A DNA stretch of 64,000 nt from an uncultured Actinomycetes bacterium (GCA_963706025.1 CAVPLM010000003.1:64001-128000); one strand, 5' to 3'. Counted from the stretch's first letter, positions 30,378 through 34,523 are shown. Numbers and translations are program-made. The notes: generated by a model not told the origin, from the sequence alone.

Positions 30378-32423
30378 GTGCAGCTGCAACTCTCGCTTGC
30401 GGTGGCCGACAGACTCCACGAGACCATGTTGGTGCGTGGAGAACCGCTTGATGCGGTGGAAGCCGTCCGCCTGCTCGTCGCCTCCCCGAACGCTCCCGTG
30501 GCTCTCTGTGACGAGATCCTGGCCGCGCTTGTGGAGCACGACCAGCGGTTCTGCTGGAAGGACGTCCACGCGGGACTGGCGGCTACCGGCGCCCGCCAGG
30601 TCTCGCTGCATCACTGGGAAGTGCCCGACCCCGATCTGGCCGATGTCCCCTTCGTGGCCCTCGACCTGGAGACTACGGGGGCGCGACCTGGGCTCAGCAA
30701 GATCACGGAGATCGGAGCGGTGAGGATCGAGGGCTTCCAGGAAGTGAGACGCTTCAGCACGCTTGTGAACCCACTCAGACCTATCCCGCCCATCATCACC
30801 CAGATCACGGGGATCACGCAGGAGATGGTGGCCGAGGCGCCGCGTATCGAAGAAGTCATCCCTGAGCTGCTGGAGTTCCTTGAGGGAGCGATCGTGGTGG
30901 CACACAACGCGTCGTTCGACGTGGGCTTTCTCAACTACGAGCTTCGCCGCCTGAAAGGTCGCAGGCTCGGGGATGGAGCCATCGACACCTTGCCCCTGGC
31001 CCGGGCGCTGGCCCCGGGTCTGCCCAACTATCGCCTGCATACGGTTGCCGAGGCTCTGGGTGCGCCGGTAACGGCCTGCCATCGCGCCCTCGCCGATGCC
31101 CAGGCCGCCGGGTATGTCTTCGTCACCCTGGTAGGGCGCCTGCAGGAACGAGGCATCACTCGTCTGGGCGAGGCCCGGTCGTACATCAGCCCCGCTTCCC
31201 ACGGTGCGTTGGAGAAGCTGCGATTGACCCGAGATGTTCCCCGGACTCCCGGCACGTACCGCTTCGTCGACAAGGATGGCATCATCCTGTACGTGGGCAA
31301 GGCCGATCGACTGCGCGAGAGGGTGCGCTCGTACTTCGTGGCCCATGGCGATCATTCCCGCAAAGTGCGACAGGCGGTGCGCCTGGTGGACCGCATAGAT
31401 TGGGAAGAGGCCGGCACACCTCTCGAGGCCGTGGTTCGAGAACAGGAGCTCATCCTCCAGCACCGACCTCCCTGCAACTTCCACGGAGGTCGACCGGAGA
31501 GCTACGTCTACCTCAAAGTAGGAGGTTCCGGTCCTGGTCTGAACCTCTACGTCAGCAACCGGCCACCCGCCTGGCTTGTCGCGTCAGAGACCGATGGCGA
31601 CCGGTCGCGGGGAGGCGGGGCCGGGCCTTCTCGCCTTCCTCTGGTCATCGGCCCGTTCCGCGGCCGCGCCCGGCTCAACGCGGCCTTGGATCTGCTCCAA
31701 CGCTGTTACCCCGTGCGCCGCTGCCCCAGGCGCCCCGACGGACGTCCCTGTGTGCGTGGGGAAGGGAACCACTGCCTCGCCCCATGCACCGGTGACCCCC
31801 TGGTCCGAACCGAACACGACACCCTGGTGATGGGAATCGTCGGTTGGCTAGCAGGTCACGCCGAAACGAGCCTCCCGGATCCTTTGGAGCGCGCTCAGGA
31901 GGTCGTGCGGTCTCTGTCCCGCCAAAGACGGTACGAACAGGCCCAGAACCTTCAGGAGGCGTGCGACCATCTGCTGAGTGTGTGCCGCTCCTATCAGTCT
32001 CTGGCTGAAGCCCGGACCCTCTGTTTCGCCGCCCTCTGGCCGGAGTCCGGGAACGGCGACGGCCCCGGGGTGCGGATGAACCTGGTGCGGAACGGCCGAC
32101 TTTGCGAGGCCGTGTCGCTCCGATCCGACGGGCTCGAACAGCAGCTGGGGGCGGCGCTCGCCGGCATGGTGGACCGGAGGACGACATTTCCCGAGTCGAG
32201 CGCCGCCCCGCCCTTCGTGGCAGTGCCGCAGAAGGAACTCGACTCGTTGCTGGCGGTCCGGCGCTGGTTCCATGAGGGGAGGGCCGCGGTGAAAGTACCT
32301 TTCCCCGCGGCCCCAGAGAACCACGCGCACCTGGAGCCCTTGAAGGCCGGCCTCGTAGCCGAGGCCCTCAGGCTCCTGTCATCGGAACCGGCGGCCCAGG
32401 AGGCCGGACCGGCTGTCCACTAG
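30378..32423 (+). CDS. DEDDh exonuclease (DnaQ-like) fused to a GIY-YIG/UvrC-like nuclease
   Basis: ALDLETTG, HNASFD, HRALADA; PGTYRF...LYVGKA..LRERVRSYF; Cys cluster C..C..CLAPC. Confidence 0.9.
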   Translation: MQLQLSLAVADRLHETMLVRGEPLDAVEAVRLLVASPNAPVALCDEILAALVEHDQRFCWKDVHAGLAATGARQVSLHHWEVPDPDLADVPFVALDLETTGARPGLSKITEIGAVRIEGFQEVRRFSTLVNPLRPIPPIITQITGITQEMVAEAPRIEEVIPELLEFLEGAIVVAHNASFDVGFLNYELRRLKGRRLGDGAIDTLPLARALAPGLPNYRLHTVAEALGAPVTACHRALADAQAAGYVFVTLVGRLQERGITRLGEARSYISPASHGALEKLRLTRDVPRTPGTYRFVDKDGIILYVGKADRLRERVRSYFVAHGDHSRKVRQAVRLVDRIDWEEAGTPLEAVVREQELILQHRPPCNFHGGRPESYVYLKVGGSGPGLNLYVSNRPPAWLVASETDGDRSRGGGAGPSRLPLVIGPFRGRARLNAALDLLQRCYPVRRCPRRPDGRPCVRGEGNHCLAPCTGDPLVRTEHDTLVMGIVGWLAGHAETSLPDPLERAQEVVRSLSRQRRYEQAQNLQEACDHLLSVCRSYQSLAEARTLCFAALWPESGNGDGPGVRMNLVRNGRLCEAVSLRSDGLEQQLGAALAGMVDRRTTFPESSAAPPFVAVPQKELDSLLAVRRWFHEGRAAVKVPFPAAPENHAHLEPLKAGLVAEALRLLSSEPAAQEAGPAVH

Positions 32424-32439
32424 GTCGTAGTCTCGGACT

Positions 32440-32625
32440 TCAGACCGCCGCGACCTCAGTCTTGGGAAGCTGGATATTATTGGCCCTCATCACCGCCGTA
32501 AGAAGACTGCGATCGATCTTCCCCTTGTATATGGGAATGCCTTCCTTGACGCACAACTGGATCACGTCGCGAGTCCCCGTGCCCAGTTCCGCCGCCAGCT
32601 CTTCGGGGGTGAAGTGGTTGGCCAT
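32440..32625 (-). CDS. 61-aa putative HTH-like small protein
   Basis: MANHFTPEELAAELGTGTRDVIQLCVKEGIPIYKGKIDRSLL...; strong RBS GAAAGGAG. Confidence 0.8.
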   Translation of the reverse strand: MANHFTPEELAAELGTGTRDVIQLCVKEGIPIYKGKIDRSLLTAVMRANNIQLPKTEVAAV

Positions 32626-32663
32626 GAGATCTCCTTTCCGAACTACTGAGTACCCAGGGCGAG

Positions 32664-32700
32664 AACAAACAAAAAAGCCCAGCAGCATCGACTGCCAGGC
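32664..32700 (-). terminator. Intrinsic terminator within the 5' leader of the small protein
   Basis: GCCTGGCAGT-CGAT-GCTGCTGGGC followed by TTTTTTGTTTGTT, upstream of the RBS. Confidence 0.75.
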
Positions 32701-32785
32701 CACTTACCTTACATAGACCACCGGCGCGGGTACTTGTCTGCGGTCACCCCCGAGCCTCTGTCTTAGTACCTTCCTCATCGTCACT

Positions 32786-32814
32786 ATTGTATCCCTACCC
32801 GCCGCCTGGGGCAA
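32786..32814 (-). promoter_or_regulatory. Sigma-A-type promoter
   Basis: TTGCCC-N17-TACAAT. Confidence 0.75.
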
Positions 32815-32855
32815 ATGCGATCCTTCGGGCGGACGCCTTCACTTCTACGTCCACT

Positions 32856-34091
32856 CTAAGGTTCTTGCAGATCCTCTCGAAGCAGGAGAAACTCCACTTC
32901 TTCCCCTGCGCGGACCCCCCGAGGACCTCCGGGAACGAAGGCCAAGCCGTTAGCTCCCACCATCGATCGCAGGATGCCCGACCCCTGAGCGCCGGTGGAG
33001 CTGACATGCCAGATGCTCCCTTCGCGCCAGGCCCGTACCCTCACCACGTACGTCCGTCCGTCGGAGTTCACAACGTCTTCTGCGATGATGGCACGATACG
33101 GCGGCCGGGTCGTCTTGCGATAGCCCATGAGACGCAGCAGCGCCGGGCGAACGAAGAGCTCGAAAGAGACCATGGCCGACACCGGGTTCCCCGGAAGGCC
33201 GAAGACCAATGTGCCGTCCCGGACGCCGAACGCTAAGGGCTTGCCCGGCTTCATTGCCACGCCCCACAGGCGGCGCTCGACCCCCAGTTCGTCTTGGACT
33301 TCCTTCACGAAGTCGAACTCTCCTACGGACACCCCCCCGGACGTGAGGAGGACATCGTACGTCAACCCCTGCTCGATGAGCTCCCGAGTCGCCGCGTAGT
33401 CATCGGGAACGATGCCCAATGCGGTCGCTTGGATCCCCAGTTGCAGGCACTGACCTCTCAGCGAATAGCTGTTGGAGTTGCGGATCTGTCCGGGACCCAG
33501 AGGTTGGTCCACCTCGACCAATTCGCTACCGGTGGAGATGATGGCCACTCTTGGGAGCCGATGGACTTGCACAGATGGCAGCCCCAGGCTGGCTATCAGG
33601 CCGATCTCAGCCGGTCCGAGGACACTGCCGGCCGCCAGCACCCGATCTCCCCGACCCACGTCTTCACCGGACCTGCGGATGTTCCTGCCCGGCCTGACAG
33701 ACTCCAAGACGAGGACGCGGCTGCCCTCTTCCCTGGTCGACTCGGATTGCACGACGGCGTCCGCGCCCACGGGCAGGGGTGCCCCGGTCATGATCTTTGC
33801 CGCTTCGCCAGGACCCAGGCGATGCTTCGCCATGTGGCCCGCGGGGATGGTCTCCGAGATGAGCAGGGCCGTCGGCGAATCCGCATTCGCATCGACTACG
33901 TCGGCGGCCCTCACCGCAAAGCCGTCCATGGCGGAGTTGTCAAAGGGGGGCACGCTGTGAGGCGCCACTATCTCCTCGCCCAGCACTGCCCCAAGCGCTT
34001 CCACCAACGAGCGCGTCTCCAGGGGGAGTGGAGCCGCTTCGGCCAGGACCCGAGTCCTCGCCTCTTCTATGCTCACCAACTTGCTGGGCAC
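32856..34091 (-). CDS. moeA: Molybdopterin molybdotransferase
   Basis: VPPFDNSAMDGFA, IMTGAP.P.GADAVV, ISTGSEL, TSGGVSVG, MKPGKP, GLPGNPVS; GTG start after GAAGGA. Confidence 0.95.
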   Translation of the reverse strand: MPSKLVSIEEARTRVLAEAAPLPLETRSLVEALGAVLGEEIVAPHSVPPFDNSAMDGFAVRAADVVDANADSPTALLISETIPAGHMAKHRLGPGEAAKIMTGAPLPVGADAVVQSESTREEGSRVLVLESVRPGRNIRRSGEDVGRGDRVLAAGSVLGPAEIGLIASLGLPSVQVHRLPRVAIISTGSELVEVDQPLGPGQIRNSNSYSLRGQCLQLGIQATALGIVPDDYAATRELIEQGLTYDVLLTSGGVSVGEFDFVKEVQDELGVERRLWGVAMKPGKPLAFGVRDGTLVFGLPGNPVSAMVSFELFVRPALLRLMGYRKTTRPPYRAIIAEDVVNSDGRTYVVRVRAWREGSIWHVSSTGAQGSGILRSMVGANGLAFVPGGPRGVRAGEEVEFLLLREDLQEP

Positions 34092-34149
34092 GAGCCGATC
34101 CTTCAATGGGTCACGCGGTCTCGATCTTGCACGCTTTGCACTCTCAGTG

Positions 34150-34177
34150 TAAACCGTTGTGGGCTCACGGCCGATAA
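34150..34177 (+). promoter_or_regulatory. Consensus sigma28 (FliA/WhiG/SigD)-type promoter
   Basis: TAAA(34150-53)-N16-GCCGATAA(34170-77), ending 10 nt before the ATG at 34188. Confidence 0.8.
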
Positions 34178-34187
34178 GAAGAATAGC

Positions 34188-34424
34188 ATGAGCGCAAGAA
34201 GCAAAGAGCCCAAACCCGTGATCGACGTGAAAGCAACCGCCACAGAGCGCACCCATCTCCCGGTAACCGACCCGGTGGTGTGCCGGCCCGCTCCGTCGAG
34301 AGCCGCTCACGTGCGTGCGATCCACGATATGGTCCGGGCCAACGACTATGTCGTGCCCGCTGGGCTCGTTGCTGAGCGGATGCTGGAGCAGGCCGCACCC
34401 GGGAAGCGCGACCCCGAAGACTAG
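34188..34424 (+). CDS. FlgM-like anti-sigma28 factor (78 aa)
   Basis: Hidden as the tail of shadow ORF 33294-34424. C-terminal RAAHVRAIHDMVRANDYVVPAGLVAERML matches the FlgM pattern R..kV..ik..i..g.Y.v....vAekml. Confidence 0.7.
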   Translation: MSARSKEPKPVIDVKATATERTHLPVTDPVVCRPAPSRAAHVRAIHDMVRANDYVVPAGLVAERMLEQAAPGKRDPED

Positions 34425-34523
34425 GGAACGCAAGACCGGACTGCCGGCCGCCCGTTACCCCTGCGCTTCGCCGGCCTGAATCTGGAACCTCACTTGCGAC
34501 AATATCCGTCCTAAGGCATCTAT

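Follow-up and report, generated by a model that had tools for sequence, protein, structure and literature searches.

The leader and gene described here lie on the minus strand, at 32440-32814 of a 64,000-nt window (the whole stretch of DNA that was analyzed) from an uncultured Actinomycetes bacterium with a genome of 3.66 Mb (GCA_963706025.1 CAVPLM010000003.1:64001-128000); the leader, ~153 nt long, runs from a promoter to a gene for a protein of 61 amino acids (aa) that resembles helix-turn-helix (HTH) proteins. The promoter consists of a -35 hexamer TTGCCC (32809..32814) and a -10 hexamer TACAAT (32786..32791), separated by a 17-nt spacer, and is followed by a candidate leaderless upstream open reading frame (uORF) of 24 codons (MRKVLRQRLGGDRRQVPAPVVYVR; 32704..32778, ATG 32778-32776, TAA 32706-32704). 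This uORF is presumably translated, and within it lies a tentative hairpin (32728..32749) in which GGGU 32749-32746 pairs with ACCC 32731-32728 around a 14-nt loop. Next come an intrinsic terminator (32671..32701), made up of a stem-loop at 32701-32676 and a T6 run at 32676-32671, a spacer (32640..32670) with few conserved columns in an alignment of 27 leaders of the window's type (alignment A3), and a ribosome binding site (RBS), GGAAAGGAG (32631..32639), the AAGGAG core of which is invariant in 27 leaders. The small gene itself, predicted to be winged-HTH-like, of the Xis/BldC/MerR type and without a curated family, occupies 32440..32625 with its ATG at 32625.

A first-pass annotation of this DNA had placed a TTGCCC-N17-TACAAT promoter on the minus strand and, behind it, a leader with an intrinsic terminator ahead of a strong RBS and the 61-aa open reading frame (ORF), and we confirmed both. 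The promoter is the sole sigma-70-like site detected by the promoter scan on either strand of 31800-33400, compared to 0.1 ± 0.4 sites in shuffled sequences (n = 50). In 36 of the 37 genome leaders of the same type, TTG is found 17-18 nt 5′ of the -10 box, which reads TACAAT in 26 of the 37 and TAGAAT, TAAAAT, TACACT or TACCAT in the remainder. The terminator hairpin has 11 base pairs by our count (6 of them G-C) and a 4-nt loop, and it runs into the T6 stretch. The scan for terminators found two terminator-like sites in the region, compared to 1.0 ± 1.0 in shuffles; because this count barely differs from that of the shuffles, the reality of the terminator rests on its conservation.

Indeed, the hairpin is conserved together with the small gene. 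We gathered 110 loci from genomes, which reduced to 102 distinct upstream regions, as well as 48 distinct regions from metagenome contigs and 9 found by a model search. A hairpin with a T run lies 5′ of the small gene in 95 of the 102 distinct genome loci, the seven without a terminator by the criteria used being L020, L022, L028, L029, L030, L051 and L109. In the 27 aligned leaders, 99.7% of the cells of the terminator stem are paired, and four pairs show compensatory changes. The terminator is 23-50 nt from the start codon in most loci, a spacer too short to hold a separate promoter for the HTH gene. Of 41 related genomes, 33 encode the protein, as do 23 of the 24 genomes of the window's own family. 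Its relatives (216 at 90% clustering) are all unnamed or ‘hypothetical’ and come, where named, from Actinomycetota or Thermoleophilia metagenome-assembled genomes (MAGs); the family comprises 418 clusters at 50% identity. Among species-representative genomes, a relative is encoded at 582 of 599 pattern matches, in records titled Gaiellales, Gaiellaceae and Thermoleophilia. A search of the window's genome with a profile of the leader recovered its own site (E 1.4e-26), and the next match was borderline (E 0.047) and lay within a coding region, so that we rejected a second copy; as judged by sequence, the leader is single-copy and dedicated to the 61-aa gene in this genome. In one MAG (G019, 65% complete) the whole locus is present twice, on contigs C20 and C21 (L006 and L038), with proteins 87% and 90% identical to that of the window, which may reflect a strain mixture or a duplication.

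The genes that flank the small gene differ between groups of genomes. In the window's family moeA is upstream and an exonuclease is downstream; in the window itself these are a moeA-like ORF (32856-34433, minus strand, stop at 32856; Pfam MoeA_N, MoCF_biosynth and MoeA_C) and a 681-aa DEDD exonuclease with a GIY-YIG domain (30378-32423, plus strand), which converges on the 61-aa gene and ends at 32423. At Gaiellaceae-type loci, a divergent alpha/beta hydrolase gene takes the upstream place, and the gene downstream encodes Ku, a methyltransferase or an AMP-binding enzyme. Because its position before the small gene is kept in these differing neighborhoods, the hairpin belongs to the small gene. 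The hairpin does lie 155 nt past the moeA stop on the same strand, as would be expected if it were the terminator of the moeA-like gene and the small gene started downstream of it. We consider this explanation extremely improbable, since a conserved promoter is found between moeA and the hairpin, the hairpin stays in front of the small gene at loci that have the divergent hydrolase upstream, neither a promoter-like site nor room for one exists between hairpin and RBS, and a contig from an RNA library (described below) appears to bridge the hairpin, a weak indication. The first-pass annotation had proposed a dedicated regulatory leader and had named lack of conservation, or an origin as the moeA terminator, as the ways in which its proposal could fail. 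Comparison of the sequences speaks against both: the leader is conserved across Thermoleophilia/Gaiellales whatever its neighbors, with the terminator also present where the upstream gene differs, and the conserved promoter precedes the hairpin. Thus, by comparison of sequences, the region is a conserved cis-regulatory leader of the small HTH-like gene and is not merely the end of moeA. The moeA-like ORF itself scores 381.9 bits against the NCBIfam model Glp (gephyrin-like divisome protein; cut-off 475) and nearly as well against MoeA models, below every cut-off, and its Pfam domains start at residue 120, so its true start is probably later.

The ATG of the uORF, which the first-pass annotation overlooked, lies 7 nt 3′ of the -10 box in the window, and its TAA lies 2 nt 5′ of the terminator stem. 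A short ORF in this position points towards attenuation by ribosomes and away from an RNA that senses a ligand or temperature. The start codon is placed in much the same way in relatives of this type: in 37/37 genome leaders an ATG (35 leaders) or GTG (2 leaders) comes 6-9 nt after the -10 box, and the full geometry of -35 TTG, 17-18 nt, -10 box, 6-9 nt and ATG/GTG is present in 36/37. In alignment A3, the ATG shows no variation at its T and G, and at least 90% conservation at its A. The uORF is probably leaderless, because the promoter geometry leaves no room for a 5′ untranslated region or a Shine-Dalgarno (SD) sequence; leaderless ORFs have been described as common in Actinobacteria (10.1101/834739).

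We followed the three frames from the ATG in 84 leaders of the window's type (37 from genomes and 47 from metagenome contigs, with L148 left out as it has no terminator by the criteria used) and scored a stop as being at the terminator edge if it fell between -17 and +6 nt relative to the start of the stem. Frame 0 remains open as far as the terminator in 82 of the 84 leaders: its stop falls at the edge in 43 of these, within the terminator in 2 and past it in 37, and only 2 leaders (L035 and L006) have an early stop. In frame 1, 82 leaders have an early stop (trivially, at ATGA) and the other 2 have a stop past the terminator, with none at the edge or within it; in frame 2, 54 leaders have an early stop, 5 an edge stop, 3 a stop within the terminator and 22 a stop past it. 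The 43 edge stops comprise 22 TGA, 14 TAG and 7 TAA codons, and the uORFs that they close are 9 (4 leaders), 21, 22, 23, 24 (19 leaders), 25 (9 leaders), 27 (6 leaders) or 28 (2 leaders) codons long. Because leader length, peptide and stop codon vary and the edge position nevertheless holds, the stop tracks the terminator. In a minimal form of the leader (L023, L191, L195 and L198), a 9-codon uORF ends 7-10 nt before the terminator, which begins 34-37 nt from the ATG. With respect to the early stops, L035 differs from L037 by a 1-nt deletion at the early-stop site, and L006 is the same as L045; the early stops may be assembly errors or real loss.

The sequence of the uORF peptide itself is probably not under selection, as far as the aligned leaders indicate, and none of the listed uORF peptides of either leader type contains a codon run for a sensed amino acid. 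Codon-position entropy was set aside as a test for coding in leaders of the window's type, since it gave only a weak signal. The arrangement might be a fixed, unregulated one, in which an ordinary small-peptide gene has its own promoter and a leaky terminator and the HTH gene receives a constant share of the transcripts, with no signal being sensed. The order of promoter, ORF and terminator is that of any gene, the stop adjoins the terminator as at many gene ends, and we identified neither a sensed amino acid nor a pause site. We nonetheless think such an arrangement unlikely. The peptide varies between subgroups while the position of the stop at the terminator holds, and the ORF extends beyond the terminator in 37 of the 84 leaders, which would be odd for a normal gene end; moreover, no promoter of its own would fit before the HTH gene, so that in any case its expression depends on what happens at this terminator.

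The clearest coding signal, as judged by sequence, comes from a sister type of leader, found at the Gaiellaceae-type loci, in which the protein starts with MANHL. In 58 of 62 sister loci, the -10 box is followed after 6-10 nt by an ATG or GTG that opens an ORF of 8-10 codons, and the full -35/-10/start geometry with the 6-10-nt gap is present in 50 of these 58 leaders; the columns of the ATG are again invariant or at least 90% conserved. In all 67 sister leaders (the 58 and 9 more found by a covariance model), the 8-10-codon uORF ends at a UGA in the loop of a hairpin, P1. Of these 67 uORFs, 64 were scored on the model alignment, and three 10-codon cases start just outside the model match. The length of the uORF departs from 9 codons by whole codons only, and in L107, L111 and L122 separate +1 and +2 insertions restore the frame (for example, L107 compared to L068). 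In 55 of 58 leaders, compared to 425 of 1160 shuffled controls, a stem of at least 5 bp surrounds the UGA, and the stems in the leaders represent 30 different sequences. In P1, 94.3% of cells are paired, compared to 36-48% in slid controls, a figure that comes from a covariance-model alignment and is thus biased towards the structure that was fitted; one P1 pair is G-C in 30, C-G in 20, A-U in 17 and unpaired in 0 of the 67 leaders. RNAalifold on a MAFFT alignment missed P1 due to register errors, and we therefore used a direct stem search and the covariance-model alignment.

We ran the covariance model with strict filters on 121 genomes of the class; in 17 of the 18 that belong to the sister family it found exactly one site per genome, and the site adjoins the gene in the three genomes that were cross-checked (G027, G032 and G037). 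The same model matches leaders of the window's type over their full length and weakly (E 0.004-0.6), a similarity in sequence that hints at common descent of the two leader types. Two sister leaders, L093 and L094, have ~60 extra nt with hairpin-like repeats between the terminator and the RBS, such that 84-87 nt, instead of 23-43 nt, separate the end of the stem from the ATG.

We favor the idea, as somewhat more probable than its negation, that the region is a transcription attenuator that works by ribosome occlusion, like those of pyrBI and pyrE. We infer from the layout the transcription start, the translation of the uORF, the conditional termination and the coupling signal. Transcription would begin at the ATG at 32778 or only a few nt from it, and the mRNA would thus open with the leaderless 24-codon uORF. 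With no ribosome on this RNA, the terminator 77 nt downstream would form, an RNA of ~105-110 nt would be released, and the HTH gene would be off. A ribosome that had initiated on the 5′-terminal AUG and was closely trailing the polymerase would reach the TAA 2 nt before the stem, and would there cover the 5′ arm of the terminator while the polymerase sat on the T run. The hairpin would be blocked by physical occlusion, with no need of an antiterminator, and the polymerase would read through to the RBS and the gene. A ribosome translating through the stem would likewise block the hairpin. Since the terminator falls inside the first ~110 nt, the step under regulation is plausibly whether a ribosome catches up with the polymerase; candidates for the coupling signal are translation capacity, leaderless initiation, polymerase pausing and nucleotide supply.

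The behavior of the leaders in a simulation, in which they were folded with the ribosome-covered 5′ stretch masked, is consistent with occlusion. With the P-site at codons 3-18, between 34 and 37 of the 37 leaders of the window's type kept the terminator in their minimum free energy (MFE) fold; among sister leaders, 53-58 of 58 did so. When the mask extended to codon 23, at which it reaches the 5′ arm of the terminator, only 13 of the 37 leaders of the window's type retained an intact terminator. Masked folding predicted no antiterminator hairpin for any upstream position of the ribosome. Since loss of the terminator was seen only once the mask extended into its 5′ arm, a trp-like antiterminator would have no part in the mechanism. 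There is precedent in Escherichia coli: a stop codon a few bp before the intrinsic terminator tR2 lets ribosomes repress termination (PMC4824070), and in pyrBI coupling along the leader peptide has to be tight if the terminator is to be kept from forming (PMC5021804). With respect to expression, a metatranscriptome contig from run X20 (230 nt, depth 2.4) covers 32546-32774 with one mismatch, bridges the terminator with 73 and 124 letters on either side and ends 4 nt inside the predicted transcript start. It is one contig among four runs and a weak hint of expression. Contigs from run X19 cover the 3′ end of the gene only; the RNA runs contain no full-length contig on the moeA side, where gaps in contig cover are uninformative.

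Several observations weigh against ribosome occlusion. As reported for E. coli, ribosomes largely fail to repress terminators situated in the first 100 bp of a coding region unless the polymerase pauses (PMC4824070), and we identified no pause site in the leader, for which no dedicated test was made. The contigs show neither RNA ends nor strand, and DNA may contaminate RNA libraries. Within the window's type, frame 0 is closed by early stops at codons 4 and 5 in 2 of 84 leaders (L035 and L006), the entropy of third codon positions is only slightly elevated (1.24 compared to 1.13 and 1.06 overall), and the second half of the uORF shows no codon periodicity; the peptide varies between subgroups, with Arg the commonest residue at 17% and unclustered. 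The first uORF of the sister type stops 27-38 nt short of the terminator stem, which is too far for occlusion, and occlusion there would need reinitiation at an overlapping NUG, the frame of which ends at the edge in only 35 of 58 leaders.

This overlap is nevertheless the basis on which the two leader types might be joined. The UGA of the sister uORF overlaps an NUG, the first base of which is U in 32 of the 58 leaders, C in a further 15, G in 8 and A in 3; an SD-like GGAGG lies ~9 nt 5′ of this NUG. The frame that the NUG opens ends at the 5′ edge of the terminator, by TAG, TAA or TGA, in the 35 leaders just mentioned, compared to 4 of 58 and 5 of 58 for the other frames. A relay of termination and reinitiation would thus unify the types, and both might then be leaderless ‘ribosome relay’ attenuators that report the translation state to a small DNA-binding regulator. 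We regard this as a doubtful extension; the C at the first position of the NUG in 15 leaders speaks against strong selection for a start codon, although some of these have an in-frame AUG two bases further on. If a relay did operate, read-through would depend on termination and reinitiation at the UGA (UGA in 67/67 leaders, never UAA or UAG), and the element might then sense not an amino acid or metabolite but release-factor-2 activity, or how efficiently leaderless initiation or the recycling of ribosomes proceeds. The possibility that the window's type is a simple fusion of the first and second uORFs was rejected, as its conserved UGA (in GGUGAC) is in a frame other than the one that a fusion predicts, and we therefore claim no homology between the frames.

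The first-pass annotation had called the region a candidate attenuator or riboswitch-like leader, and as an attenuator this proved right in kind and wrong in mechanism: a leader with a terminator and an HTH-like product stand, and the pairings through which an RNA switch was to control a nucleic-acid-binding protein are not supported, nor is any riboswitch-like aptamer. The complementarities on which it relied, between a central AGTACCC and either an upstream GGTACT or a downstream GGGTACT, are literally present in the window. Among the 27 leaders, standard pairs occur in 47.2% of cells for the upstream pairing and 47.1% for the downstream one, compared to 25-50% in slid controls in which the partner was moved by 1-3 columns, and neither is conserved. 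A third element, GCCGGTGGTC, had been suggested to compete for the 3′ arm of the terminator; 74.5% of its cells are paired, but 0 of 9 pairs show compensatory changes and folding does not favor the pairing, which we rejected. The GGGU:ACCC hairpin is paired in 85.2% of cells in the 27 leaders, with one pair G-C in 17 and A-U in 4, and probably corresponds to P1 of the sister type.

No known RNA family was recognized. A scan of the 64-kb window with Rfam 15 gave no match at the gathering score, at E values up to 10 the interval 32300-33000 contained three chance-level matches, none within the leader, and a scan of 10 related loci found tRNA only. The leader (166 nt as folded) has an MFE of -54.1 kcal/mol (z = 0.23), and 115 of 200 shuffles were at least as stable. 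We therefore rejected a riboswitch or other known RNA family, and an aptamer is likewise unsupported. A resemblance to the leaders of clostridial cold-shock genes, which the first-pass annotation had proposed, fared no better, in that the leader profile matches only its own site in the genome and the product has no cold-shock domain; csp genes were not separately located.

An RNA switch of another sort might bind a protein or ligand, including the 61-aa protein acting by feedback on the leader or promoter, with the hairpin as the binding site and the ATG and stop as incidental. P1 in the sister type covaries and holds an invariant UGA in its loop, the product has a predicted nucleic-acid-binding fold, and GCCGGTGGTC does pair with the terminator arm at the frequency given above, all of which would suit such a switch. 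On the other hand, the region lacks an Rfam match, excess stability and a fold alternative to the terminator, the pairing of GCCGGTGGTC is without compensatory change, and the distance from ATG to UGA changes only by whole codons or by compensated pairs of insertions, which a motif acting solely as RNA leaves unexplained. On balance, we judge a binding switch to be quite improbable.

The promoter and terminator would also yield an RNA of ~105-110 nt that might act in trans as a small RNA, with the downstream gene expressed by incidental read-through only. The sequence at 32747-32726 on the minus strand is identical over 22 nt to G000:C3:33461-33482 (L032 1501-1522), where a leader RNA would be antisense to a 385-aa ORF. 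However, the match does not co-vary in G001, G002, G003 and G019; G002 keeps 18 of the 22 positions, with differences at unrelated sites, and G001 ~13 of 22 by hand count. Moreover, the leader sits directly before the same gene wherever we checked. We therefore rejected a target defined by this identity, which is probably a chance match on a shared GC-rich word, and hold a trans-acting role for the terminated RNA to be very unlikely. The 385-aa ORF, on the opposite strand at the 22-nt match, has CxxC motifs and a C-terminal hydrophobic stretch.

The product of the controlled gene is best called a small MerR/Xis-like winged-HTH protein, a similarity at the level of the predicted fold. An AlphaFold2 model built with 23 sequences (pLDDT 85.2) contains two helices, a short hairpin-like wing and a third helix. 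Its matches to known structures are weak: the Pukovnik Xis aligns with a TM-score of 0.62-0.63 (probability 0.96, E 0.34), and RacA, BldC, CbpM, the IF2 N-terminal domain and gpNu1 were also matched, with Foldseek E values of at least 0.24 throughout. No curated Pfam family scored above threshold and NCBIfam gave no match; the sub-threshold Pfam matches were HTH_17 (E 0.07, 13.8 bits compared to a gathering score of 27) and IF2_N (E 0.052). Neighbors with an assigned family in the ESM Atlas carried HTH_59, HTH_17 or MerR_1 at 0.87-0.88, which we treat as leads only. The likeness to phage Xis, BldC, the N-domain of RacA (MerR superfamily) and the IF2 N-terminal domain is thus one of predicted fold, and the 61-aa protein differs from them in that every match falls below the family threshold. 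The long members of the family (176-405 aa) contain AMP-binding or sigma-70 pieces or nothing recognizable; they provide no functional lead and are probably gene-calling run-ons. The gene that converges on the small HTH gene is of a DNA-repair type in both leader groups, being an exonuclease or, at some Gaiellaceae-type loci, Ku (for example, L076 2678-4015 and L106 2737-3600, both on the minus strand). This may hint at the role of the regulator or may be a coincidence.

If the leader does act by occlusion, it would offer a compact, testable system of ~110 nt for transcription-translation coupling on leaderless mRNAs. The element is conserved in at least two families of the little-studied and mostly uncultured class Thermoleophilia, and the gene that it would control encodes a widespread, uncharacterized protein predicted to be a small HTH protein. 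We found no literature on this element, and none linking Thermoleophilia or Gaiella to attenuation or leaderless mRNAs, in a search that covered sources other than subscription journals and supplementary files.

The layout of the pyrE attenuator resembles that of pyrBI. The region described here shares with E. coli pyrBI (pyrL) and pyrE a short ORF that runs up to or over an intrinsic terminator; the proposed occlusion by a trailing ribosome, with no antiterminator, follows the accounts of pyrBI cited above (PMC5021804, PMC4824070). Of the features of an occlusion attenuator, a terminator between promoter and gene and a short ORF that reaches this terminator are found in the window. Unlike in pyrBI and pyrE, the uORF is probably leaderless, the controlled gene encodes a small HTH protein and not an enzyme of nucleotide synthesis, no U-rich pause region or nucleotide signal was identified in the leader, and the host belongs to an uncultured actinobacterial class. 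With the trp, his and ilv attenuators the region has in common a short ORF close to the promoter, hairpins, and an intrinsic terminator that precedes the structural gene, and by analogy the hairpin that overlaps the sister uORF could act like the trp 1:2 pause hairpin. Indeed, the sister leader L076 2371-2482 (plus strand) matches the Rfam family Trp_leader (RF00513) over its full length at 15.4 bits (threshold 41, E 0.92), which is a sign of similar layout and not of membership; unlike in trp and his, no antiterminator alternative is predicted and there is no run of regulatory codons.

Closer to the host, the mycobacterial polycysteine short ORFs are described as actinobacterial ORFs with a 5′-terminal AUG or GUG that control downstream genes by the position of the ribosome (10.1101/834739), and translated uORFs of Mycobacterium tuberculosis have been tied to premature termination in a study that also reports intrinsic terminators to be rare in this species (10.1101/2022.06.01.494293). 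The mycobacterial examples described in these two reports differ in that they unmask a sequestered RBS or use Rho (10.1101/834739, 10.1101/2022.06.01.494293). In the leader analyzed here, the putative target is instead a canonical intrinsic terminator, the RBS is unsequestered and the uORF has no Cys tract. If our interpretation is correct, it would thus add to the regulatory devices of actinobacteria a leaderless attenuator of the occlusion type that acts on a canonical intrinsic terminator.

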